A stretch of DNA of 64,000 nt from a virus (taxonomy: Duplodnaviria; Heunggongvirae; Uroviricota; Caudoviricetes): IMG/VR virus record IMGVR_UViG_3300025133_000019, one strand, 5' to 3'. Of this stretch, positions 2,998-61,788 are shown piece after piece (positions within the stretch are counted from its first letter, which is position 1; every line of letters starts with the position of its first letter). The position numbers were made by a program, and so were the translations under genes. Below the pieces are notes generated by a model. The model was not told the DNA's origin and did no database searches. It saw nothing but the letters and a program-made list of their open reading frames with translations.

Positions 2998-3621
2998 ATG
3001 ACAACAAAAAAAGAGAAAATATATAAATTAAAGTATGATTATAGCAAAATACAAGAGGATATAAACGCAGGGCTGGGTTACGCACAGGTTAGAGCTAAGT
3101 ACGGAATAAGTTTTGCAGCGTTGCACAAATCGGCAAAGAAGGGAAGAATACGATTTATGACCCACTCCGAGAAAGCTAGATGGAAAACAGCTAGGGGCCT
3201 CAATCACTCTCCTAAAATGACTCCTGAATACAAAAAGAAAATCTCGGATTCAATGAAAAAGGGCCACGCCGAAGGCAGAGCCCATAACATAGGTTCGTCC
3301 AGGTGGAACAATGAGGAAAGCTACCCCGAAAAATTCTTCAAGAAAGTAATAAGTAATCATTTTGAAGACCAAGATTACCGTTATGAGCTGCCCTGTGGCA
3401 TATACTCTCTGGATTTCGCTTGGGAACATAAGAAAAAGGTTATAGAGATAGATGGTGACCAGCACCAAAGATTCGAGGAATACATAGCTAGGGATAAAAG
3501 AAAAGATGCTTACTTGAAATCTACTGGGTGGGATCTACTTAGAATTCCGTGGAAAGAGTTTTACCACAACACAAAAGAATACATCCAAATAGCTAAAGAT
3601 TTCATAGACGGGTCTATCTAA
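2998..3621 (+). CDS. DUF559/Vsr-like PD-(D/E)XK endonuclease with NUMOD3-like motif (homing-endonuclease-like)
   Basis: KKKISDSMKKGH motif; YSLDFAWEHKKKVIEIDGDQH; DKRKDAYLKSTGWDLLRI. Confidence 0.75.
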   Translation: MTTKKEKIYKLKYDYSKIQEDINAGLGYAQVRAKYGISFAALHKSAKKGRIRFMTHSEKARWKTARGLNHSPKMTPEYKKKISDSMKKGHAEGRAHNIGSSRWNNEESYPEKFFKKVISNHFEDQDYRYELPCGIYSLDFAWEHKKKVIEIDGDQHQRFEEYIARDKRKDAYLKSTGWDLLRIPWKEFYHNTKEYIQIAKDFIDGSI

Positions 3622-4126
3622 AGCTTTTGGAATATCTAGATTTACTGGAATCTCCGGCAAGACCTGTTTTGATAACTTGGGAATACACAGAAAAATCTAT
3701 TATCTTTCCATTTAACAGATTCCAGTAATGAGGTAGTCGGTAAAAATCTTTCTGGAGTTTTGGGTCAAGAGAATCAAAATAGCTTTTCCTGTCTTCGTCG
3801 TTAAAAGGATCTAGCCCTGTTTCTCTCATTTGTTTGAATTCTTCTTTGTGAAAATCCCCGTAACTTAGCATGGGTTTGTCTAGCTTAAAATAACCGGATT
3901 CCCTGGAAACCTTGAAATCTTGGTAGTTGTTTTCAATCCAATCTCTAAAATCCGCAGCTATAACACCGCAGTTGTCCCGTATGCATCCGTATTTAATTTC
4001 GTCTTGATGAGTGTTAACAAACTCTTGAATAGCTTTCTTTTCTTGTTCGGATAAATGCTCTTGAGAATAACGGGATAACCCACTGTTGGCAATAACAACC
4101 ATTTTGCTTAAAATTCCCATACCCAA
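3614..4126 (-). CDS. hypothetical protein, paralog of 17578..18075
   Basis: Shared TGL.P..DRK..Y.SLDP....DF...PH.WN.LN.K.ID motif. Confidence 0.7.
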   Translation of the reverse strand: MGMGILSKMVVIANSGLSRYSQEHLSEQEKKAIQEFVNTHQDEIKYGCIRDNCGVIAADFRDWIENNYQDFKVSRESGYFKLDKPMLSYGDFHKEEFKQMRETGLDPFNDEDRKSYFDSLDPKLQKDFYRLPHYWNLLNGKIIDFSVYSQVIKTGLAGDSSKSRYSKSFR

Positions 4127-4650: not shown

Positions 4651-5325
4651 ATGTCACGTAAACTTATTTTCATCAAAGACTTAAAGCCTTTAACTGCTTT
4701 GTCAGATGATTTCAGCTTTGAAAAAGTGGTTGTATATTATAGCAATAAACTAGGAGTATTCAGTCCAGTAACTTCTGAGACAATGCTATACAGTATATTC
4801 GGAACTAGTCTGACTTCCCCAGAATCCGTGGATACAAAGTCAAGAGACTGGTGCTTGGATTTGGCTAAGGATTCTGGAGCTTTGGCGGTAAGACAATACG
4901 ACACTTTTGACGATAAGAGCTTGGCTATTCAGTATTTCATCAGAAAAGGGGAAATGAACGAAGCCAGATCCAGAGAAGTGGGGATTAAACCTGTAGAGTC
5001 CCTAAATCCAAATCTTATATTAATCCGTGATAAAGACAGCAAATTCTTTACTATTGGTCACAGCCATCATGACTCTGGAGCGATAAAGGGTTATGTTCTG
5101 TATAACTATAAGGAAGAGAAAGTAGCAGAGGATAGTCTGTTGAGAAGCCCTAATGACCTTAGCGTAGAAAGTCTTATCGAAAGGGCGTTATCTTTAAACG
5201 TGTTAAACCCGGAAAACGAGATCTATATTTATGATTCGATAAAAGAGTTATTGTGGGATAAAAAGCAATTTGCTAATTACTGGAGTGTTATAGAAGAACT
5301 GGACAGGAAACATGGGAATATTTGA
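4651..5325 (+). CDS. hypothetical protein
   Basis: 224-aa ORF overlapping the next gene. Confidence 0.6.
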   Translation: MSRKLIFIKDLKPLTALSDDFSFEKVVVYYSNKLGVFSPVTSETMLYSIFGTSLTSPESVDTKSRDWCLDLAKDSGALAVRQYDTFDDKSLAIQYFIRKGEMNEARSREVGIKPVESLNPNLILIRDKDSKFFTIGHSHHDSGAIKGYVLYNYKEEKVAEDSLLRSPNDLSVESLIERALSLNVLNPENEIYIYDSIKELLWDKKQFANYWSVIEELDRKHGNI

Positions 5326-22747: not shown

Positions 22748-23770
22748 ATGACCCTTTTTACACACGAGTACATCTGGCTAGACGGATGCGAGACTCAATT
22801 ATTGAGGTCCAAAACAAGAATTTCTAGTGCTCCGGTTCCTAAAGTATGGAATTATGATGGAAGTTCCACAAAGCAAAGTGAAGGGGACTCCGCTGACTTA
22901 GTTCTAGTTCCTACGACTACGGTTAGAGACCCTCTTAGAGAAAACGGATTTTTGACTGTTTGTGAAGTCATGGAGCAAGACGGAGTTACTCCCCATGAAA
23001 CTAACACACGAGCACTATTGAGTAATACAGTAGACAGAGCCGAAAAACTAGAACCCTGGATAGGATTCGAACAAGAATATACTTTGTTTGATATGGATAA
23101 GAACCATGTTCACGGATGGCCTGAACGAGGATTCCCTGGACCTCAAGGACCTTATTATTGTGGTGTCGGACCAGCTCAAATACGGGGTCGTCAGTTCGTA
23201 GAAGCTCATATGAAAGCTTGTATGGACGCTGGACTTATGATTTACGGGGTCAACGCTGAAGTTATGATGTCTCAGTGGGAATTTCAAATAGGACCACGAG
23301 GAGTCAAGGGAGACAAATCAGACTTACTCACCATTTGTGACCACCTTATCCTGGCTAGATGGTTGCTATTTCGACTCGGAGAAGATTTCGAAGTTGAGCC
23401 CTCCTTGGACGTTAAGCCTATTAAAGGAGATTGGAATGGTGCCGGGATGCACACTAATTTCTCAATAGCTCCGATGAGAGAAGACGGTGGCCTCGAAATT
23501 ATAAAAGAACTTATACCAGTTCTTGAATCAAGGCACGAATCTCATATCTCATCATACGGAGAAGGTCTTCACGAAAGGTTGACAGGTCTCCACGAAACCT
23601 GTAGTATAGATGAGTTTAAGAGCGGAGATTCTAACCGTGGAGCTTCTATTAGAATTCCTAATCATGTAGCCCAAGACGGTAAAGGATATTTTGAGGATAG
23701 AAGGCCAGGAGCCAACGCTAATCCTTATGATGTGGCGAGACTTATTTTTGAGGCTTGCTTGGAAGGATAA
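22748..23770 (+). CDS. glnII: glutamine synthetase type II
   Basis: EYIWLDG..LRSKTR, WNYDGSST, GFEQEY, GPQGPYYCGVG, WNGAGMHTNFS, RLTGLHET, YFEDRRPGANANPY; 340 aa. Confidence 0.93.
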   Translation: MTLFTHEYIWLDGCETQLLRSKTRISSAPVPKVWNYDGSSTKQSEGDSADLVLVPTTTVRDPLRENGFLTVCEVMEQDGVTPHETNTRALLSNTVDRAEKLEPWIGFEQEYTLFDMDKNHVHGWPERGFPGPQGPYYCGVGPAQIRGRQFVEAHMKACMDAGLMIYGVNAEVMMSQWEFQIGPRGVKGDKSDLLTICDHLILARWLLFRLGEDFEVEPSLDVKPIKGDWNGAGMHTNFSIAPMREDGGLEIIKELIPVLESRHESHISSYGEGLHERLTGLHETCSIDEFKSGDSNRGASIRIPNHVAQDGKGYFEDRRPGANANPYDVARLIFEACLEG

Positions 23771-24688: not shown

Positions 24689-26179
24689 ATGGAAAAAATT
24701 ACACCTAGTGCGTATCAAGAAAAGATTTTCGACTTTGTAGAGCAAGACTATAGGAACCTCATAGTTAATGCTGTTCCTGGGTCAGGGAAAACCACGACTG
24801 TCATCATGGCCCTTAAGTTAGCATACGGAAAAACTTTGGCTGCTGCTTTTAACAAAGCTATAGAAACAGAATTATCTGCTAAAGCTCCTAAGCACGCTAA
24901 AGTTAAGACTCTTAATGCTTTAGGACACGGTTTGTTGTGCAGAAAGTACAATTACGTAAAGATTAATAAGAATAAGTTCTATAATTCTGTTAAAGCTTAT
25001 GAGGATGAAAGTTCCGAGAAAATACCTTTTAAAATGGTAAAGCCCCTTAAAGAGTTTTTTGAGAAAACTCGGGCTTATGGATTCGGAATTTCCATAGATA
25101 TGACGGATGAAAACTTGAATGAGTACTTTGATTTTTTCCAAATAGACCTAGATCCTCAAGAAAACGAAGATTTCGATATTCTAAAAACTTTCTTTTTAAA
25201 AGCTTATCAAGGAATTTTTAAGGAGCATATCGGAAACGAATCCGAGTTTGATTTCGGGGACCAAGTGTACATACCTGTTTACAGAAAAATAGATGCCTGG
25301 AAGTACGATAACATTTTTATTGACGAGGCCCAGGATATAAGTCCACTGCAATTACTGTTAATACAGAAATTCAGTCATTCCACTACTAGATCGTATTTTG
25401 TTGGCGACAGATTCCAATCTATATACGCATTTAGAGGGGCTGACCATAATTCCATGGATACTATCAAAAAACTTTTTGACTGTGTTGAATTGCCTTTGAG
25501 TATTTCTTACAGATGCCCTAACAAAGTTTTGGGTATATTAAGTCAATACACACCTGATATAGAAGGAAAGCCAGGAAATATAGAGGGAGAAGTAGACAAC
25601 CTTCTGTTCACTGAGGAAATGGCCTTTCCCAAAGATTCTCTTATATTATGTAGAACTAACGCACCTTTAGTTAAAGTTGGAGCAAGCCTATTAGCTAGAG
25701 GACAAGATGTAAGTCTTAACAACAATGAGTTAAGAGACAAGCTCCTAAATTTCATCGCAGGATGTAAGACTACAAAAATGAACAGGATACTTGAACTAGC
25801 TAAGAGTGACCATGAAAGATGGCTGTCTGTAGGAAAAATCCGCAAAGACGCTTGGTTTCAAGTCCTAGAGTCCCAAGAGGTATATCAATCACTACAGAGT
25901 TTCTATGATATTTCCGATACTGTTGCTGATCTAAAGGATAATATATCAAAGATGTTTACCTATAAAATTGGGTGTATACAACTTTTAACAGTCCATAAAG
26001 CTAAGGGACTGGAATCAGATAACGTGTACATTATTAATGATGAACTTTTCAGTAAATTTGGTAACACCGATAAAGAGAAGATTCAGGAAGACAATTGTAG
26101 ATATGTAGCACTTAGCAGGTCTAAAAAGAACCTCACCTTTTTAACAGTGAATATCAAAGACGGGAATTCTGGAAAGTAA
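24689..26179 (+). CDS. UvrD/Rep-like SF1 helicase
   Basis: NAVPGSGKTT, FIDEAQD, VGDRFQSIYAFRGAD, SYRCP, LTVHKAKGLE, YVALSRSK. Confidence 0.92.
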   Translation: MEKITPSAYQEKIFDFVEQDYRNLIVNAVPGSGKTTTVIMALKLAYGKTLAAAFNKAIETELSAKAPKHAKVKTLNALGHGLLCRKYNYVKINKNKFYNSVKAYEDESSEKIPFKMVKPLKEFFEKTRAYGFGISIDMTDENLNEYFDFFQIDLDPQENEDFDILKTFFLKAYQGIFKEHIGNESEFDFGDQVYIPVYRKIDAWKYDNIFIDEAQDISPLQLLLIQKFSHSTTRSYFVGDRFQSIYAFRGADHNSMDTIKKLFDCVELPLSISYRCPNKVLGILSQYTPDIEGKPGNIEGEVDNLLFTEEMAFPKDSLILCRTNAPLVKVGASLLARGQDVSLNNNELRDKLLNFIAGCKTTKMNRILELAKSDHERWLSVGKIRKDAWFQVLESQEVYQSLQSFYDISDTVADLKDNISKMFTYKIGCIQLLTVHKAKGLESDNVYIINDELFSKFGNTDKEKIQEDNCRYVALSRSKKNLTFLTVNIKDGNSGK

Positions 26180-26192
26180 TTCTGGTACACAC

Positions 26193-26221
26193 TTGACACT
26201 GATACACAATATGAGTATGAA
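26193..26221 (+). promoter_or_regulatory. sigma70-type promoter of the Ile/Met tRNA unit
   Basis: TTGACA-17 nt-TATGAA. Confidence 0.6.
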
Positions 26222-26240
26222 ACTCAAAGGAACCTCTTAC

Positions 26241-26267
26241 ATAGCTATGATTATTATGCGGTTGTAG
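26241..26267 (+). CDS. Ile/Met-rich leader peptide (I A) M I I M R L; start uncertain (26211, 26241 or 26247)
   Basis: ATA GCT ATG ATT ATT ATG CGG TTG TAG; AAAGGA at 26226-26231; stop lies in antiterminator segment. Confidence 0.65.
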   Translation: MAMIIMRL

Positions 26268-26296
26268 GGGTTTTTGTTTCTCCTTTGGTTAAAGCT

Positions 26297-26327
26297 AAAG
26301 ACCCCTCATCTCCGAGGGGTCTTTTTT
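26297..26327 (+). terminator. attenuator terminator before tRNA-Ile
   Basis: AAAGACCCCTC-ATCTCC-GAGGGGTCTTT plus T run. Confidence 0.9.
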
Positions 26328-26333
26328 ATATTC

Positions 26334-26405
26334 TGGCGTATAGTCTAACGGTTAGGTCGCTACTCTGATAAAGTAGAAGTCTAGGTTCAATTCCTGGTAC
26401 GCCGA
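26334..26405 (+). tRNA. tRNA-Ile(GAT)
   Basis: CTACT-CTGATAA-AGTAG anticodon arm, TTCAATT T loop, A73. Confidence 0.9.
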
Positions 26406-26412
26406 TATACTA

Positions 26413-26485
26413 GGCAAGGTAGTTCAGTTGGTAGAACGCATAGCTCATATCTATGAAGTCGGGAGTTCGATCCTCTCTCTTGCTA
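26413..26485 (+). tRNA. tRNA-Met(CAT) elongator (or lysidine-type Ile2)
   Basis: CATAG-CTCATAT-CTATG; lacks initiator GGG/CCC pairs. Confidence 0.85.
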
Positions 26486-26490
26486 TTTAT

Positions 26491-26564
26491 CGTGGCGTAG
26501 CTCAGTTGGTTAGAGCATCATCCTTATAAGGTGAGAGTCGTGAGTTCAAGCCTCACCGCCACGA
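26491..26564 (+). tRNA. tRNA-Ile(TAT)
   Basis: CGTGGCG/CGCCACG acceptor, TCATC-CTTATAA-GGTGA arm. Confidence 0.88.
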
Positions 26565-41921: not shown

Positions 41922-41949
41922 AGAAAGGACTCTAGCTAGAGTCCTTTCT
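41922..41949. repeat. perfect 28-bp palindrome
   Basis: AGAAAGGACTCTAG/CTAGAGTCCTTTCT abutting TTGACA at 41949. Confidence 0.9.
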
Positions 41950-41984
41950 TGACATTACAAGGAGTTTACCGTTACAATTAAAGT

Positions 41985-42212
41985 ATGATTCTGTCTCTTT
42001 TAATCGTATTACTTGGCTTCTATTTTGGTTTGTACTCGGAATTTAGAGATGATATTTCAATGGTGGGAGTAATGAGTTACGTGGTCTTAGTATTTGTGCT
42101 AAAGGTTCCTTATAATTCTCCTTGGTTCTACAAATCTTTGTTACATCAACTGTTATTTGGAGGAGTGTTAGGTACACTTGTATATTATGCCAGAAGTTAT
42201 TATAAAAAATGA
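41985..42212 (+). CDS. small multi-pass membrane protein
   Basis: Three hydrophobic segments. Confidence 0.55.
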   Translation: MILSLLIVLLGFYFGLYSEFRDDISMVGVMSYVVLVFVLKVPYNSPWFYKSLLHQLLFGGVLGTLVYYARSYYKK

Positions 42213-43167: not shown

Positions 43168-44430
43168 ATGGGATTTCTAACTCTTAGTAGTGATAATCCA
43201 AATTTTTCTTTTGCTATAAAAAAGAATCCCGAAACCGGAATGCAGATAAAAAAATGCAGACGTGGGTTCATGTATGGGTGGTATTCAGATCCTTGTAGTT
43301 ATAACATCTATTTTAGGGAGGGGCTAAATTCAGTTTCTTTTAAACGGGATAAGCACGAAGATTTTGAATACATAAATACTACTAGATTTTCAAGCCCTCT
43401 TTTCGTTATTCAAGCTATTTCAGAGTTCTTTAGGCATAACACCAGAGAAATTGTTAGCGAAGACACTGAAGGCACGAACACAGTCAATATCAATATGATT
43501 TCGGTGAATGTTCCGTTGTACCTAAAATTCTTTTCCGAGCAATTCGACAACCTAGAAGTTAGTCATGCCGAGCTTGGACCTAAGAATTTCTCGGTTACAA
43601 TGAAATCCGCAGGTACTTTACACCGAGTCTTAAATTTGGCTCAGTTATTTGCTTTCTTTGTTATCCTTTCTAACCGAGATTACATTGAACTTAATAACGA
43701 TATTGTTACCAAGTACATGGAATGTTTGAATGCGCTAACTCCTCCTTACTTTATGACCTATTTGTTTAAAAAGAATTGTCTAAGAAGCAGAGGAGCTTTT
43801 GATAAAGAAAAGGCTGTGTTAGAGCAGAATCCTTTGTACGATTCTATGACCTTAAAATTTGGGGGTACTCTGCAAAACCGGATAGACGCTATTCTGGAAA
43901 GAACTTGTTTAGACGAATCTATTCTAGACATAGGGTGTGGTGAAGGAAACTATATTAGAGAGTTCTCAAAGCGTAATAAAGAAGTTAGATACATTGCTGT
44001 CGATACTGACGAAGAGACCTTAGAAAGGGCTAAAAAGGTCATTAGAAACAGAAATCTTGAGAATGTCTTGGTTTCCAGTAACCTAGATATAGTTATAGCG
44101 ACTGGAATCCCTGAAAACACAGAAGTTCTGTTAACCGAAGTTATTGAACACATGTCAGAACAAGAAGCCCAGGAATTGGTGAACAAGATTCTCGGTTTAA
44201 AAAACGTTAAGAGCTTGTTAATAACCACCCCTAATTTTGAGTTTAATCGGTTTTATCCTATGGACACGAAATTCAGGCATGATGACCATAAATTTGAGTT
44301 TACTCAAGAGCAATGGAGAGTGTTTATGGAACAATTCGAGCGCTACGGAGAAGTCGAGTACTTTAATATAGGTGATGAGGTTAACGGAATCCCCACTAGT
44401 CTAGGAGCTAAGATAACTAGGAAGGTTTAG
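43168..44430 (+). CDS. hen1: Hen1-like RNA 3'-terminal 2'-O-methyltransferase
   Basis: ILDIGCGEG SAM motif, EVIEH, ITTPNFEFN, FRHDDHKFEFT; adjacent to Pnkp. Confidence 0.85.
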   Translation: MGFLTLSSDNPNFSFAIKKNPETGMQIKKCRRGFMYGWYSDPCSYNIYFREGLNSVSFKRDKHEDFEYINTTRFSSPLFVIQAISEFFRHNTREIVSEDTEGTNTVNINMISVNVPLYLKFFSEQFDNLEVSHAELGPKNFSVTMKSAGTLHRVLNLAQLFAFFVILSNRDYIELNNDIVTKYMECLNALTPPYFMTYLFKKNCLRSRGAFDKEKAVLEQNPLYDSMTLKFGGTLQNRIDAILERTCLDESILDIGCGEGNYIREFSKRNKEVRYIAVDTDEETLERAKKVIRNRNLENVLVSSNLDIVIATGIPENTEVLLTEVIEHMSEQEAQELVNKILGLKNVKSLLITTPNFEFNRFYPMDTKFRHDDHKFEFTQEQWRVFMEQFERYGEVEYFNIGDEVNGIPTSLGAKITRKV

Positions 44431-44431
44431 T

Positions 44432-44776
44432 ATGGAAGATGTTAAGTTAACAGAAGAGCTGCTGCTAAAAATAGGAACGGACGAAGAAGACATTGGTACT
44501 CTTAGGCGAAACGGATTAATTGGTATTCCTCTAAGTATTTTTAGGTCCCAGAAGTGGTTCAAAACCCGCATGTTTAAGAATCTGGGAGAAATTAAGGAGA
44601 TAATGCATCAGAAGTGTGGCTATGGGGATGAGGAAGGTTATACGGCAATTTACGAATACCCAAGCGGGTACGGTCAGGTATGTGGGTATGATGAACACGG
44701 AAACCATATCTCAACTAGGGATGACGAACACCAAGACTTGGTAAGATATACACATAATGATAAGGGTTGCCAATAG
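44432..44776 (+). CDS. YD-repeat-like phage protein (paralog of 28286 and 61987-62544)
   Basis: LTEELLLKIG...RNGLIGIPL N-terminus; YDEHGN motif. Confidence 0.55.
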   Translation: MEDVKLTEELLLKIGTDEEDIGTLRRNGLIGIPLSIFRSQKWFKTRMFKNLGEIKEIMHQKCGYGDEEGYTAIYEYPSGYGQVCGYDEHGNHISTRDDEHQDLVRYTHNDKGCQ

Positions 44777-44814
44777 CCTTGACACATAAAGAATAAAAAT
44801 AGTACAATAAAAAC

Positions 44815-47385
44815 ATGGAAAATACAATTACAGTTGAACCAAATACTATTTTTTTATGTATTGGACCCACTAATTCTGGTAAAACTACTTTTATCAAGAA
44901 TTTGATTGCTAATAATAAAAAGAAGCTGGAGGGACTAAATGTTCAAATACTGGGGTCTGACCAAATAAGAAAAGAGCTTCTTGGGGAGGATTTGTTTAGA
45001 TATGATCCTAGAATGCTTGAAGCTAGCGATGCTACGTTCAGAGTATTTGAAGCTAAGTTAAAAGCGTTAACACAATACCCTATTAACGCAGACATTATTT
45101 TTCTTGATTGTACTTCTTTGCATCCTGACTTCAGGAAATTCGTAAGTAACACTGCAAAGGAAAGTTGCTACAATCTACAAGCCCTAGTTTTCAACTACAA
45201 AGACACCGAAGACCACATGAGGTATGCTCACGAAGGCTATGAACATCTAGTATACAGGAATCTCAAGAAGTTTAGAACAACAGTACTTCCCACTATTAAA
45301 GCCAAAGATTTTGATGGTCTAACTAAAATAAGGTCTAAAGACTTTGGTGACTGGGAACTCGGTCTAAAGAACTTTGATTTAGCTGAGAGTTACAAATTAG
45401 ATCCTGAGGTACATTATAGTATTATCGGAGATATCCATGGGTGCTTCGATGAATTTCAAGAACTGCTTTTAAAGCTCGGAAGTAAAATTGAGAATGGTAT
45501 TCTCATTCCTCCTGAAAACAGAAAGTTTATTAGTATAGGTGACCTGATTGATAAAGGCCCGGAAACTAAAAAAGTAGTAGACTTTGTTCTCAGAAATATC
45601 CAGCATTTCATTATTATCAGAGGAAATCACGAATACGGTAATTACCAGTATTTGACTGGTCAAATGAAGAAAGGGACCTGGACCCCTAAGTTTATTAATG
45701 AGTGGTTCGATACAATTAGGCTAGCCGAGCAAGATCCGGATTTAAAACAGAAACTACTTGAGCTAGTCGAATACTCTGCTCCTTTTGCGAGTCACCCGAA
45801 TTTTATCTGTACTCATGTTCCGTGTAAATCTAAATTTTTAGGTAGAGTCTCTAAAAAAGGGGTTAACGGTCAGGTAAGATGGAGCTATCCACATAGAGAA
45901 GATAGAACACTCGAAGAATACGCAGAACACCTTAAAGAGACCTTAAGCTACTTGAAAGAAGAGTCAGATTTTAATCTGCCTTATCATATCTTTGGTCATA
46001 TCGCTACTGCTAATACCATAAGGTATTCCAAAAAAATTGGTATTGACTTAGGGTGTTATAAGGGAGGAAAACTCCAAGCCGTAACATTTTACTCAGGAAG
46101 TAAAAAGCCTGAATTCTGTGAAGTAGAAAGTAAGCAACCCAAAGACCTTGAGGGATTACCAGATTTGACTCCTGCGCCTGTTCCGGTGGAACTAAATTTA
46201 GAAGATCTAGATCCTAAGGACATGGTTAAGATGAGGAAAATTTGCGCTAATAAAATAAATTTTCTTAGCGGTACGGTATGCCCAGCAGACAAAGATACTG
46301 AAACTAACGAACTAGAATCTCTAGAAAAAGGTTTGAACTACTTTAAAGACAACGGAGTAAACAAGGTTCACCTGCAAACCAAGTATATGGGAAGTAGAGG
46401 TACTGTGTACTTAACTCCAGATAATGAAACAAGTTTCGTTATTAGCAGAAACGGGTTCAAAATAGGATACCTAGATTTCAGCGATCAGTTCTCGATTCTT
46501 AGGGACAGGGTTAAAGAGTATTTCGACTGCGGTGCAGAAATAGTTATTATAGATGCCGAAATCATGCCTTGGGCTGCTATGGGTAAAGGGTTAATAGAAA
46601 AAGAGTTCGGGATAGTAGGAACAGGGTTAGCTTCAGAGCAAGACATATTAAAAAATTCCGGGTTTTACGAACAATTAGATTCTATGTCTTGCTCAACAGA
46701 ATTTATTGGCTACCTAGAAGACAAGAAAACTACTAGTAAAAAGGATCTTGTTGAGAAGTACGGACACTCTAAATTTTCGACTTACCGTGCTCTAGACGAA
46801 TCAGAGATTATAGAATCTTATACCGAGGACTTTTTGATTCAGCAGTATTTTGATCAACTAAAACTTTATGGAGAAGAAGGCGATTTGCATATAGAACCCT
46901 TCTGTCTGTTAAAAGTAGTTTATCCTGATAGTGAAACCACATTTTTTACAGAAACCAGTAAATCTATGTTTCAAAAAGTAAACCCCGAAGGTCGTAACTT
47001 AGAGGTTGACTTTAGCGATCCAGATTACCTGGAGAAAGCCCAAGCATTTTATGACGAACTTACTTTAAATATGGAAGGTATAGTGATTAAGCCAGAGATC
47101 ATGTGGACCCCTGGAATTGCTCCTTATATGAAAGTCAGAAATCCTCGATACCTCTCCATTATCTATGGGTATGACTATCAGAAAGACACTAAATTCCAAA
47201 GACTCATCAGGCAAAAGAATATCGCCAGAAAACTGAGGGCAAGTATCCAGGAGTACGAAACTGGAAAAAGTCTGTTAGAAGTCCCTTGGAAAGAAATAAA
47301 CAGTGAAAACACTAGGTATATTGGTTTGGTCTCTAAATTCATGAGGCTTGAGAAAAAAGCTGAATCCTTAGATCCTAGATTATGA
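44815..47385 (+). CDS. pnkp: polynucleotide kinase-phosphatase-ligase (bacterial Pnkp)
   Basis: GPTNSGKTT kinase; IIGDIHGC/IGDLIDKG/RGNHE phosphoesterase; TKYMGSR, EGIVIKP, KVRNPRYLSIIYG ligase. Confidence 0.93.
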   Translation: MENTITVEPNTIFLCIGPTNSGKTTFIKNLIANNKKKLEGLNVQILGSDQIRKELLGEDLFRYDPRMLEASDATFRVFEAKLKALTQYPINADIIFLDCTSLHPDFRKFVSNTAKESCYNLQALVFNYKDTEDHMRYAHEGYEHLVYRNLKKFRTTVLPTIKAKDFDGLTKIRSKDFGDWELGLKNFDLAESYKLDPEVHYSIIGDIHGCFDEFQELLLKLGSKIENGILIPPENRKFISIGDLIDKGPETKKVVDFVLRNIQHFIIIRGNHEYGNYQYLTGQMKKGTWTPKFINEWFDTIRLAEQDPDLKQKLLELVEYSAPFASHPNFICTHVPCKSKFLGRVSKKGVNGQVRWSYPHREDRTLEEYAEHLKETLSYLKEESDFNLPYHIFGHIATANTIRYSKKIGIDLGCYKGGKLQAVTFYSGSKKPEFCEVESKQPKDLEGLPDLTPAPVPVELNLEDLDPKDMVKMRKICANKINFLSGTVCPADKDTETNELESLEKGLNYFKDNGVNKVHLQTKYMGSRGTVYLTPDNETSFVISRNGFKIGYLDFSDQFSILRDRVKEYFDCGAEIVIIDAEIMPWAAMGKGLIEKEFGIVGTGLASEQDILKNSGFYEQLDSMSCSTEFIGYLEDKKTTSKKDLVEKYGHSKFSTYRALDESEIIESYTEDFLIQQYFDQLKLYGEEGDLHIEPFCLLKVVYPDSETTFFTETSKSMFQKVNPEGRNLEVDFSDPDYLEKAQAFYDELTLNMEGIVIKPEIMWTPGIAPYMKVRNPRYLSIIYGYDYQKDTKFQRLIRQKNIARKLRASIQEYETGKSLLEVPWKEINSENTRYIGLVSKFMRLEKKAESLDPRL

Positions 47386-48334: not shown

Positions 48335-48363
48335 TTGACACTAATAGTTATTTGGTGTAGTAT
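48335..48363 (+). promoter_or_regulatory. sigma70-type promoter of the Gln/Cys/Leu tRNA operon
   Basis: TTGACA-17 nt-TAGTAT, same context as 2658. Confidence 0.75.
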
Positions 48364-48459
48364 TAGTACATAAGACTGAAGATTACAGGGTTACCGTTAT
48401 TTTGAGACACACCCCCTGCTATCACTCACTGGGTCTTATATTTTTTAAAGGATATAGAA

Positions 48460-48534
48460 ATGATTACAAGAAACGTTTTACAACAGTTATGTTTGCTCCA
48501 GCTAAGTATGCTGGGAGGTAAGGGCGTTTCGTAA
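48460..48534 (+). CDS. Leu/Gln/Cys-rich leader peptide MITRNVLQQLCLLQLSMLGGKGVS
   Basis: AAAGGA SD at 48447-48452; TTA CAA CAG TTA TGT TTG CTC CAG CTA; 3' half covers antiterminator segment. Confidence 0.8.
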   Translation: MITRNVLQQLCLLQLSMLGGKGVS

Positions 48535-48553
48535 AAACATTGCTATAACTACA

Positions 48554-48598
48554 AAAAAAGCCCCTTGTTTTCCAGATAGGAAGCAAGGGGCTTTTTTT
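48554..48598 (+). terminator. attenuator terminator before tRNA-Gln
   Basis: AAGCCCCTTGTTTTCC-AGATA-GGAAGCAAGGGGCTT plus T run. Confidence 0.9.
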
Positions 48599-48605
48599 GT
48601 GCCCT

Positions 48606-48677
48606 AGAGCCTTGGTGTAATTGGTAACACAGCAGACTTTGACTCTGCTATTCTGAGTTCGAATCTCAGGGGCTCTG
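48606..48677 (+). tRNA. tRNA-Gln(TTG)
   Basis: GCAGA-CTTTGAC-TCTGC; G73. Confidence 0.92.
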
Positions 48678-48684
48678 TATTGTT

Positions 48685-48756
48685 GACACGGTGTCCGAGT
48701 GGTTAGGGAGATGCCTGCAAAGCATCTTTACGTGAGTTCGAATCTCACCCGTGTCT
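48685..48756 (+). tRNA. tRNA-Cys(GCA)
   Basis: GATGC-CTGCAAA-GCATC; U73. Confidence 0.92.
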
Positions 48757-48759
48757 TAT

Positions 48760-48830
48760 AGAGGTATAGTGTAATGGTAACACGACAGACTCTGAATCTG
48801 TGGCTTCTGGTTCGACTCCAGATACCTCTG
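48760..48830 (+). tRNA. tRNA-Gln(CTG)
   Basis: ACAGA-CTCTGAA-TCTGT; G73. Confidence 0.92.
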
Positions 48831-48833
48831 CAT

Positions 48834-48917
48834 GGCGGTGTGTTGGAATTGGTATACATCTGAGTTTTAGAAACTCAGGCCCTTAAGGGATTGAGAGTTC
48901 GAATCTCTCCACCGTCA
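48834..48917 (+). tRNA. tRNA-Leu(TAG)
   Basis: TGAGT-TTTAGAA-ACTCA, long variable arm, A73. Confidence 0.9.
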
Positions 48918-48923
48918 TTACAT

Positions 48924-49008
48924 GGCTCCGTAGCCGAATTGGAATAGGCACTAGAGTTAAAATCTAGCGGACATCGTCCATTTGTGGGTTCAATCCCCAC
49001 CGGAGCTA
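48924..49008 (+). tRNA. tRNA-Leu(TAA)
   Basis: CTAGA-GTTAAAA-TCTAG, long variable arm, A73. Confidence 0.88.
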
Positions 49009-49023
49009 TTTTATAGTATATAA

Positions 49024-49112
49024 GCTGATGTGGCGGAATTGGTATACGGTACTTCCTTTCGGGAAGGAGACCTATTAATACGGTCACGAAGGTTCGAACC
49101 CTTCCATCAGCT
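49024..49112 (+). tRNA. atypical class II tRNA-like RNA: Leu-type body, TTC at anticodon position
   Basis: GCTGATG/CATCAGC acceptor, GGAATTGGTATAC D loop, ACTTC-CTTTCGG-GAAGG arm, 20-nt variable region, U73. Confidence 0.7.
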
Positions 49113-49118
49113 CTTTAT

Positions 49119-49200
49119 GCCAACGTGGTGAAACTAGAAGACACGCTAGACCTAGAATCTAGCGCCTTCGGGCATGCGAGTTCGACCCTCGCCGTTGGTA
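49119..49200 (+). tRNA. tRNA-Leu(TAG), second copy
   Basis: CTAGA-CCTAGAA-TCTAG (C33), variable arm, A73; D loop lacks GG. Confidence 0.8.
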
Positions 49201-49206
49201 CTACAT

Positions 49207-49288
49207 AGCAGTACGTTGGAATTGGAAGACATGCAAGACTAAGAATTTTGTGCCTTTTGGCGTGAGGGTTCGAATCCCGCCGTCGCTA
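49207..49288 (+). tRNA. tRNA-Leu(AAG), imperfect acceptor stem
   Basis: CAAGA-CTAAGAA-TTTTG, variable arm, TTCGAAT T loop; mismatches in acceptor and T stems. Confidence 0.65.
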
Positions 49289-49357
49289 TATAATTTCTAT
49301 ACAAAGAGCTATTTCTTTGTTATAATTAGTAAAATAACTATTTATACAAGGAACATA

Positions 49358-58972: not shown

Positions 58973-59206
58973 ATGAAGCTTACAGATCATCAACTAAAAG
59001 CACTGAGAAGAATAAAAAGAGGGATAGAGAAAGCTAAAAAGCTAGATCCTGGTTATACCGGGGGACTCCCTCTAGAACATTCGGTATTTCTTAATGCGTC
59101 AACCCTTAAATCTCTGTTAAAAAGAGGATTAATACAACTGGATAGATCCAGTGTTAATCATTCTGTTTACGGGGAAGTAAAATTCTCAATCCATATGACC
59201 CCTTAG
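58973..59206 (+). CDS. small winged-helix-like protein; TAG stop lies inside the tRNA
   Basis: MKLTDHQLKAL...TLKSLLKRGLI. Confidence 0.55.
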   Translation: MKLTDHQLKALRRIKRGIEKAKKLDPGYTGGLPLEHSVFLNASTLKSLLKRGLIQLDRSSVNHSVYGEVKFSIHMTP

Positions 59207-59268
59207 CTCAATGATAGAGCGTCGGCTTCTAAACCCGAAGGTTGAGAGTTTGATTCTCTCAGGGGTCA
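59197..59268 (+). tRNA. tRNA with Arg(TCT)-like body; standard spacing gives CTA anticodon (possible amber suppressor)
   Basis: GACCCCT/AGGGGTC, GCTC/GAGC D stem, G-TCGGC-TTCTAAA-CCCGA-AGGTT, T loop TTTGATT. Confidence 0.65.
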
Positions 59269-59295
59269 TAAAAAATTTGGAAGCAAAATTAACAG

Positions 59296-59324
59296 TTGAC
59301 TAATAGTAAGTTTTTATGTATACT
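59296..59324 (+). promoter_or_regulatory. sigma70-type promoter
   Basis: TTGACT-17 nt-TATACT. Confidence 0.75.
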
Positions 59325-59333
59325 AAATATAAG

Positions 59334-59435
59334 ATGGAAAATACATAGACTAAATACAAACCAGAAGAAACAAACTTCACCCGTTGCGTTGAGGACTTAT
59401 TATTAATAGTTCTACCAACGGGTTTTTTAATGTAG
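59334..59435 (+). CDS. leader ORF MENT(TAG)TKYKP...GFLM(TAG)
   Basis: TAG at codon 5 (59346-59348); readthrough frame spans the terminator. Confidence 0.5.
59379..59428 (+). terminator. leader terminator
   Basis: ACCCGTTG...CAACGGGT plus T run, inner AGGACT/AGTTCT pairing. Confidence 0.75.
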
Positions 59436-61678: not shown

Positions 61679-61788
61679 AACTAGTAAGAGCCAGATACTA
61701 ACATATCTCACAAATTTAATCAAATTTAGTCTGTTGTATTGACAATTCTTAGTGTCCTTAGTTATACTAGATAAAATGAAGGAGAGTT

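Follow-up and report, generated by a model that had tools for sequence, protein, structure and literature searches.

The window analysed here is a stretch of 64,000 nucleotides from a Caudoviricetes virus (IMG/VR record IMGVR_UViG_3300025133_000019) and is part of a very large phage genome; identical proteins occur on contigs of 347 and 374 kb. Its genes are densely packed and read well in the standard code, and there are 13 tRNA genes. Between a UvrD-type helicase gene and three consecutive tRNA genes, in the order Ile(GAT), Met(CAT) and Ile(TAT), lies a short open reading frame followed by a set of alternative hairpins, the last of which is a strong intrinsic terminator (Table 1). An earlier note had proposed that this region is an Ile/Met-sensing attenuator, and all the coordinates it gave for the pairing segments and the terminator are correct. 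The tRNA with anticodon CAT is called Met; it is not initiator-like (G1-U72, and an anticodon stem without the three G-C pairs), although an Ile2 (lysidine) identity is not excluded.

Table 1. Features of the tRNA trio locus, and other features of the same window.
Position	Strand	Feature	Details
24689-26179		UvrD-type helicase gene	
26193-26198	+	TTGACA, -35-like hexamer	17 nt before TATGAA (26216-26221), which lacks the final T of a -10
26205-26210	+	CACAAT, -10-like hexamer	6 nt before ATG 26217; -35 partner CTGGTA is weak
26217-26267	+	Leader ORF, 16 codons plus TAG (26265-26267)	MKLKGTSYIAMIIMRL
26231-26240	+	Segment 1	AACCTCTTAC; pairs with segment 2; 1:2 duplex -13.0 kcal/mol
26241-26258	+	Sensing codons	ATA GCT ATG ATT ATT ATG
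26264-26279	+	Segment 2, 5' arm of the antiterminator	GTAGGGGTT at 26264-26272; contains the leader stop
26292-26307	+	Segment 3, 3' arm of the antiterminator and 5' arm of the terminator	26297-26306 pairs with 26266-26275 (10 pairs, one of them G-U); 26292-26306 with 26266-26279; 2:3 duplex -15.5 kcal/mol
26314-26327	+	Segment 4, 3' arm of the terminator, running into the T tract	Terminator stem 26297-26324, 11 pairs with 6 G-C, T6 to 26327; 3:4 duplex -20.3 kcal/mol
26334-26405	+	tRNA-Ile(GAT)	ARAGORN; Rfam 56.5 bits
26413-26485	+	tRNA-Met(CAT)	ARAGORN; Rfam 61.6 bits
26491-26565	+	tRNA-Ile(TAT), reads ATA	ARAGORN; Rfam 67.1 bits
2658-2937	+	Asn unit	Promoter at 2658; leader MKRLGNLNNNNFEAGVF (2765-2818); antiterminator 2801-2812; terminator 2833-2855 plus T7; tRNA-Asn (2865)
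48335-49201	+	Gln/Cys/Leu unit	Promoter at 48335; leader 48460-48534 with the run LQQLCLLQL; terminator 48557-48594; tRNAs (48605 onwards) Gln, Cys, Gln, Leu, Leu, one long-arm tRNA called Glu, and Leu
43168-47385		Hen1-Pnkp RNA-repair pair	Next to the largest tRNA block
59196-59269		tRNA with anticodon CTA	

The terminator was the top hit of a consensus scan of 12 kb and is one of about six strong + strand terminators in the 64 kb. Only 6 nt separate its T tract from the first tRNA, and no promoter-like site lies between 26222 and 26334; the nearest -10-like string, TATATT at 26327-26332, would start transcription inside the tRNA. The trio can therefore be transcribed only by reading through this terminator. 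Other tRNAs of this phage group are built differently: the CTA tRNA of a diverged relative (contig L013, see below) and the Ile(TAT) of another (L047) sit directly behind a TTGAC(A/T)-17/18-TAnnAT promoter. The gated layout is thus a choice, not a default. The RNA of the leader folds far better than its shuffles (z = -5.3; 0 of 200 shuffles as good), and the 1:2 hairpin is present in the minimum-energy fold of the full leader.

Does the same design occur elsewhere in the window? Two other tRNA blocks, Asn and Gln-Cys-Gln-Leu-Leu-(long-arm)-Leu, have the same build, each behind a leader rich in its own amino acids. Three of the five tRNA units in the window have a strong terminator within 12 nt upstream (chance approximately 2E-8). 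In contrast, about twenty tRNA units in five unrelated giant-phage records show no comparable terminator in front, so the design is not generic. A hairpin is visible upstream of the Gln-Arg-Glu-Asp block of the crAss-like phage cr85_1, but with no clear codon match in a quick inspection by eye.

To test the codon match, we counted the maximum number of cognate residues in a stop-free 7-codon window, in any frame of the 200 nt upstream of each block, and compared this with random 200-nt segments of the same DNA on both strands. For their own amino-acid sets the leaders give P = 0.001 (Asn), 0.007 (Ile/Met) and 0.002 (Gln/Cys/Leu; approximately 0.001-0.003), and the Fisher combination is 3-6E-6. 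All other combinations of leader and amino-acid set are non-significant except for a Val/Ala-rich window (P = 0.009), which is the out-of-frame reading of the G/T-rich antiterminator and has no start codon. Taken alone, the enrichment of the Ile/Met leader is modest: P = 0.007-0.011 against random segments in all frames, and up to 0.019 depending on the window used, while five Ile/Met among 15 residues has a binomial probability of 0.006 against a background of 8.5%. In the two relatives alone it is P = 0.086. Additionally, the Ile/Met run lies in the AU-rich apical loop of hairpin 1:2, so local composition may contribute. The case becomes strong with the two sister loci and with three of five tRNA units sitting within 12 nt of a strong terminator. 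Demand for these tRNAs is plausible, since ATA is used 28.6 times per 1000 codons and makes up 41% of the Ile codons of the phage.

Among billions of proteins and contigs searched, only two diverged lineages were found, L013 (helicase 73% identical) and the contigs L047-L052 (70%), and in both the helicase gene is followed by the same element. L013 has a helicase terminator, then TTGCCA-17-TACAAT, 6 nt, and a 20-codon leader, MKLVKTLDIRNIIMRLLRAI, ending in TAA; an antiterminator, a terminator and the Ile-Met-Ile trio follow. L047 has TTGACA-17-TAGTAT, 7 nt, and the leader MKFMNINIMLC ending in TGA; an antiterminator, a terminator and only Ile(GAT) and Met follow. Four of the six L047-type contigs carry an extra in-frame AACATT, which adds one more Asn-Ile pair (11 or 13 codons). 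The start ATGAAA(C/T)TC and the core ATT ATG are invariant, and the frame stays open through a 1-nt and a 6-nt indel. The three terminator stems differ in sequence and each has its own matching upstream copy, which overlaps the leader's stop codon in the window and L047 and ends 3 nt before it in L013. These antiterminators beat dinucleotide shuffles (P = 0.038 in the window, 0.006 and 0.050 in the relatives), as does that of the Asn unit (P = 0.002), whereas six control terminators give 0.16-0.88. The three homologues share ancestry, however, so their common geometry does not amount to three independent observations. Interestingly, the L047 type does not gate Ile(TAT), which sits elsewhere behind a plain promoter, and has no ATA codon in its leader; this is suggestive but rests on a single contrast and is not significant by itself.

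Other searches for relatives added little. In IMG/VR the helicase reaches at most 30% identity, a 26-nt tRNA word gave no hits, and the conserved 18-nt loop word gave 37 hits, none beside a tRNA, most of which sit just downstream of the reverse complement of a start codon and read on the other strand as ribosome-binding sites. A collection of phages matched only the tRNAs. The neighborhoods of distant homologues of the helicase contain no tRNAs, nor do those of five relatives of Pnkp. The 207-residue gene after tRNA-Asn is a mobile Vsr/DUF559-type endonuclease and is useless for synteny, and four other samples of the same phage are identical in these regions.

We next asked whether the pairings could act as a switch. 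Column-by-column covariation on a MAFFT alignment is meaningless here because the three terminators sit in shifted registers, and each sequence was therefore folded separately. We folded the RNA that exists just before the 3' arm of the terminator is made and forbade pairing for everything up to 11 nt past the first base of the ribosomal A site. A ribosome on ATA 26241, ATG 26247, or ATT 26250 or 26253 leaves 10-11 of the 11 bases of the terminator's 5' arm locked in the antiterminator; on ATG 26256, 8 of 11 are locked. A ribosome at the TAG stop masks segment 2, and the arm is then free apart from a small local hairpin (4 of 11). With no ribosome, 1:2 forms and the arm is again free. L013, L047 and L048 behave the same way when stalled and at the stop, and so do the Asn and Gln/Cys/Leu leaders; across these leaders a stall on cognate codons sequesters 6-11 nt of the arm. 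In all five leaders the last fully permissive sensing codon (ATT 26253 in the window) lies 12 nt before the antiterminator arm. This is the classical trp/ilv scheme, although the model is thermodynamic, and kinetics and coupling are assumed.

The start codon, which the earlier note left uncertain, is most likely ATG 26217. In all three lineages it lies 6-7 nt after a -10-like hexamer, which implies a leaderless mRNA with its 5' end on the AUG. The same promoter-to-ATG spacing precedes other genes of this phage, including Pnkp at 44815. Initiation is nevertheless uncertain, because in this phage the -35 partner has decayed and there is no Shine-Dalgarno sequence before ATG 26217, although only 13 of 30 phage genes show such a motif. 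The alternative pair TTGACA-17-TATGAA has a poor -10 and was not reported by the promoter scan; if used, transcription would start near 26228 and the leader would shrink to ATG 26247 (MIIMRL). No terminator separates the leader from the helicase gene, so it may also be fed by read-in. The Ile codons and the switch survive either way.

Taken together, these findings suggest that the element is a ribosome-mediated transcription attenuator that controls the three phage tRNA genes and matches their output to decoding demand. This core reading, already proposed in the earlier note, survives every computational test we could run, and we put its probability at roughly 0.65, its function being inferred without transcript, ribosome or reporter evidence. 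In this scheme a ribosome translates the leader while RNA polymerase moves towards the terminator. If ATA, ATT and ATG are decoded quickly, the ribosome reaches the stop codon and covers segment 2, segment 3 pairs with segment 4, and transcription stops before the first tRNA. If charged Ile or Met tRNA is short, the ribosome stalls on 26241-26256, covering segment 1 but leaving segment 2 free to pair with segment 3, so that the terminator cannot form and the tRNA genes are transcribed. With no ribosome at all, 1:2 forms first and termination follows. Because the products are the tRNAs that read the sensing codons, the circuit would be a negative-feedback supply control. Extra tRNA does not help if the amino acid or the synthetase is limiting, however, so the physiological logic is assumed rather than shown.

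The alternative that survives best, though we consider it unlikely, is a plain, leaky terminator: the hairpin would simply end helicase-operon or short upstream transcripts, the tRNAs would be made by constant low read-through followed by RNase P processing, and the small ORF and its codon content would be incidental. In the window this is indeed the first terminator after the helicase gene, and the Ile/Met enrichment alone is modest. However, L013 has a separate helicase terminator and then a new promoter before the leader, so its second terminator is not needed to end the helicase transcript. The codon match in three of three gated units, the strength of antiterminators placed at the leader stop relative to control terminators, and the maintenance of the ORF through indels also speak against it.

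Less likely still, the promoter-to-terminator unit might be a gene in its own right, either a small regulatory RNA of about 110 nt or a 16-residue peptide, with the tRNAs merely lying downstream. The unit is highly structured in all homologues (z = -5.3 to -6.9), and the antiterminator loop TTGTTTCTCCTTTGGTTA is identical in the window and L013. Attenuator RNAs such as rnTrpL can probably act in trans as well, so this reading need not exclude attenuation. Yet the peptide differs in length (11 to 20 residues) and in sequence apart from I-(I)-M, the conserved loop is absent from L047, no Rfam family reaches its threshold for the element, and the match between codons and tRNAs in three units is left unexplained. 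Similarly improbable is read-through that depends on a factor rather than on a stalled ribosome, either a phage or host antitermination protein or direct binding of tRNA to the leader. Giant phages often encode transcription factors, a NusG-like gene was seen in one distant Pnkp-carrying relative, and the antiterminator loop contains UGGU, which could pair with an ACCA 3' end. But UGGU is not kept in L047, which has UGGA against the same discriminator A, there is no T-box match and the leader is far shorter than a T-box, no factor is identified, and the codon match is again unexplained. Finally, the link suggested in the earlier note, that suppression of the leader's TAG by the phage CTA tRNA carries ribosomes through the terminator, is not supported and is very improbable: the frame does stay open for 26 more codons, to TAA at 26346-26348 inside the first tRNA, but the leader stop is TAA in L013, which also has a CTA tRNA, and TGA in L047, and TAG ends 23 of 80 long ORFs in the window, where reading it through does not lengthen genes in any coherent way.

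Why phages carry tRNA genes, and when they use them, is a long-running question. An attenuator whose sensor codons are read by its own products would mean that tRNA supply is demand-controlled, block by block, rather than constitutive. It would be a new target class for the classical mechanism and the first case we know of in which tRNA genes are regulated by decoding speed; in the literature we searched, which did not include most subscription journals, many leader-peptide attenuators of amino-acid, synthetase and resistance genes were found but none in front of tRNA genes. The leader codons could then be read as a statement of which tRNAs the phage finds limiting in its unknown host, and such elements offer compact, amino-acid-specific sensors of decoding capacity for synthetic biology. 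It is tempting to speculate, although this is doubtful on present evidence, that the phage runs a set of codon-matched sensors, at least three in this window, each of which measures how fast ribosomes decode one group of codons and switches on only the matching tRNA block. The circuit would then act as a damage or depletion alarm for the tRNA pool, for example after host shut-off or attack by anticodon nucleases, and would work alongside the Hen1-Pnkp pair.

Among known systems, the closest are the multivalent leader-peptide attenuators of enterobacterial amino-acid operons, the ilvGMEDA leader ilvL (Ile/Leu/Val) and the thr leader (Thr/Ile), together with trpL, hisL, pheL and leuL (for the general principle, see PMC1183508). 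As inferred here, a short translated leader carries a run of regulatory codons, four RNA segments give 1:2, 2:3 and 3:4 pairings, an intrinsic terminator lies ahead of the regulated genes, a ribosome at the stop favors termination while a stalled one favors read-through, and more than one amino acid is sensed. The phage element differs in that the regulated genes are tRNAs, not biosynthetic enzymes, so that the product would act directly on the sensor codons; it is viral, and its mRNA is probably leaderless. There is no sequence relationship: the best Rfam match, Phe_leader (RF01859), scores 26.7 bits (E = 0.009) against a cut-off of 55, and His_leader (RF00514) 16.4 against 49. It is nevertheless notable that the best match, although below threshold, is a leader-peptide attenuator. 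The pheST attenuator of E. coli (pheM leader) applies leader-peptide attenuation to a gene of the translation apparatus and responds to the charged level of one tRNA, but it is cellular, senses a single amino acid and controls a synthetase protein. T-box riboswitches (RF00230) also place a terminator/antiterminator switch upstream of translation-related genes, keyed to one tRNA species through a codon-like specifier. A T-box, however, binds uncharged tRNA directly, needs no ribosome, is about 200 nt or longer and has a conserved Stem I and T-box sequence, none of which was found here, either in the gathering-threshold scan of the window or at E up to 10 on 26150-26340. Ordinary bacterial and phage tRNA units, examined here in E. 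coli pheV and pheU and in the five unrelated giant-phage records, are transcribed by the host-type polymerase from sigma-70-like promoters, and this phage's own CTA tRNA and the Ile(TAT) of L047 are built that way. Those units have a promoter directly upstream, with no leader ORF and no strong terminator in front, while the trio studied here lies behind a terminator.

In addition to the leaders themselves, the window contains other genes and elements (see table for coordinates). A Hen1-type RNA methyltransferase and a polynucleotide kinase-phosphatase with a ligase domain (Pnkp), both recognized from precomputed Pfam hits (PF22032; PF00149, PF16542), lie about 1 kb upstream of the largest tRNA block. 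This pair repairs RNA, and probably tRNA. The array itself is followed, after its seventh tRNA, by a tRNA-like sequence. Although the earlier note counted eight tRNAs here, this sequence is called neither by ARAGORN, even at a relaxed threshold, nor by Rfam. Directly after the tRNA-Asn unit sits a Vsr/DUF559-type endonuclease gene (PF04480, PF18741) with hundreds of scattered homologues, which is probably a mobile homing-type element. Upstream of the helicase lies a glutamine-synthetase-like protein (Pfam: Gln-synt_C, E = 6e-15) that is conserved in the relatives L047-L052; in those relatives and in L100, the same phage from another sample, a CreA-like protein lies between it and the helicase.

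Coordinates of additional features in the window and in the relative L013
Feature	Window	Strand	L013
Hen1-type RNA methyltransferase	43168-44430
Pnkp with a ligase domain	44815-47385
Promoter followed by ATG	44779-44817
Promoter followed by ATG	41949-41987
Promoter followed by ATG	61739-61778
Promoter followed by ATG	19756-19719	-
tRNA with anticodon CTA	59196-59269		5215-5286
Promoter, very short ORF and terminator	59296-59430
Strong terminator of that unit	59379-59423
Vsr/DUF559-type endonuclease	2998-3621
Glutamine-synthetase-like protein	22748-23770
tRNA-like sequence	49208-49290
Second upstream segment, Asn leader	2769-2782
Antiterminator loop	26274-26291		3890-3907

Several promoters of the form TTGACA-17/18-TAnnnT are followed after 6-7 nt by ATG, and only 13 of 30 long ORFs have a Shine-Dalgarno-like motif. 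The promoter spacing suggests that leaderless mRNAs are common in this phage. The tRNA with anticodon CTA (amber suppressor type) is kept in a relative (L013), where it sits behind a plain promoter. Within the window, TAG ends 23 of 80 long ORFs, and reading it through does not lengthen genes coherently. Downstream of the CTA tRNA, another promoter is followed by a very short ORF (M-E-N-T-TAG) and a strong terminator, an arrangement that the earlier note listed separately.

In the Asn leader, a second upstream segment, AAAAGACTGGGCAA, can also pair with the 5' arm of the terminator, and that unit may therefore have a more complex switch than the simple four-segment scheme. The 18-nt antiterminator loop ahead of the Ile-Met-Ile trio, TTGTTTCTCCTTTGGTTA, is identical in the window and L013, although the flanking stems differ. 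It is absent from L047. The loop contains UGGU, and it resembles the anti-Shine-Dalgarno end of 16S rRNA.
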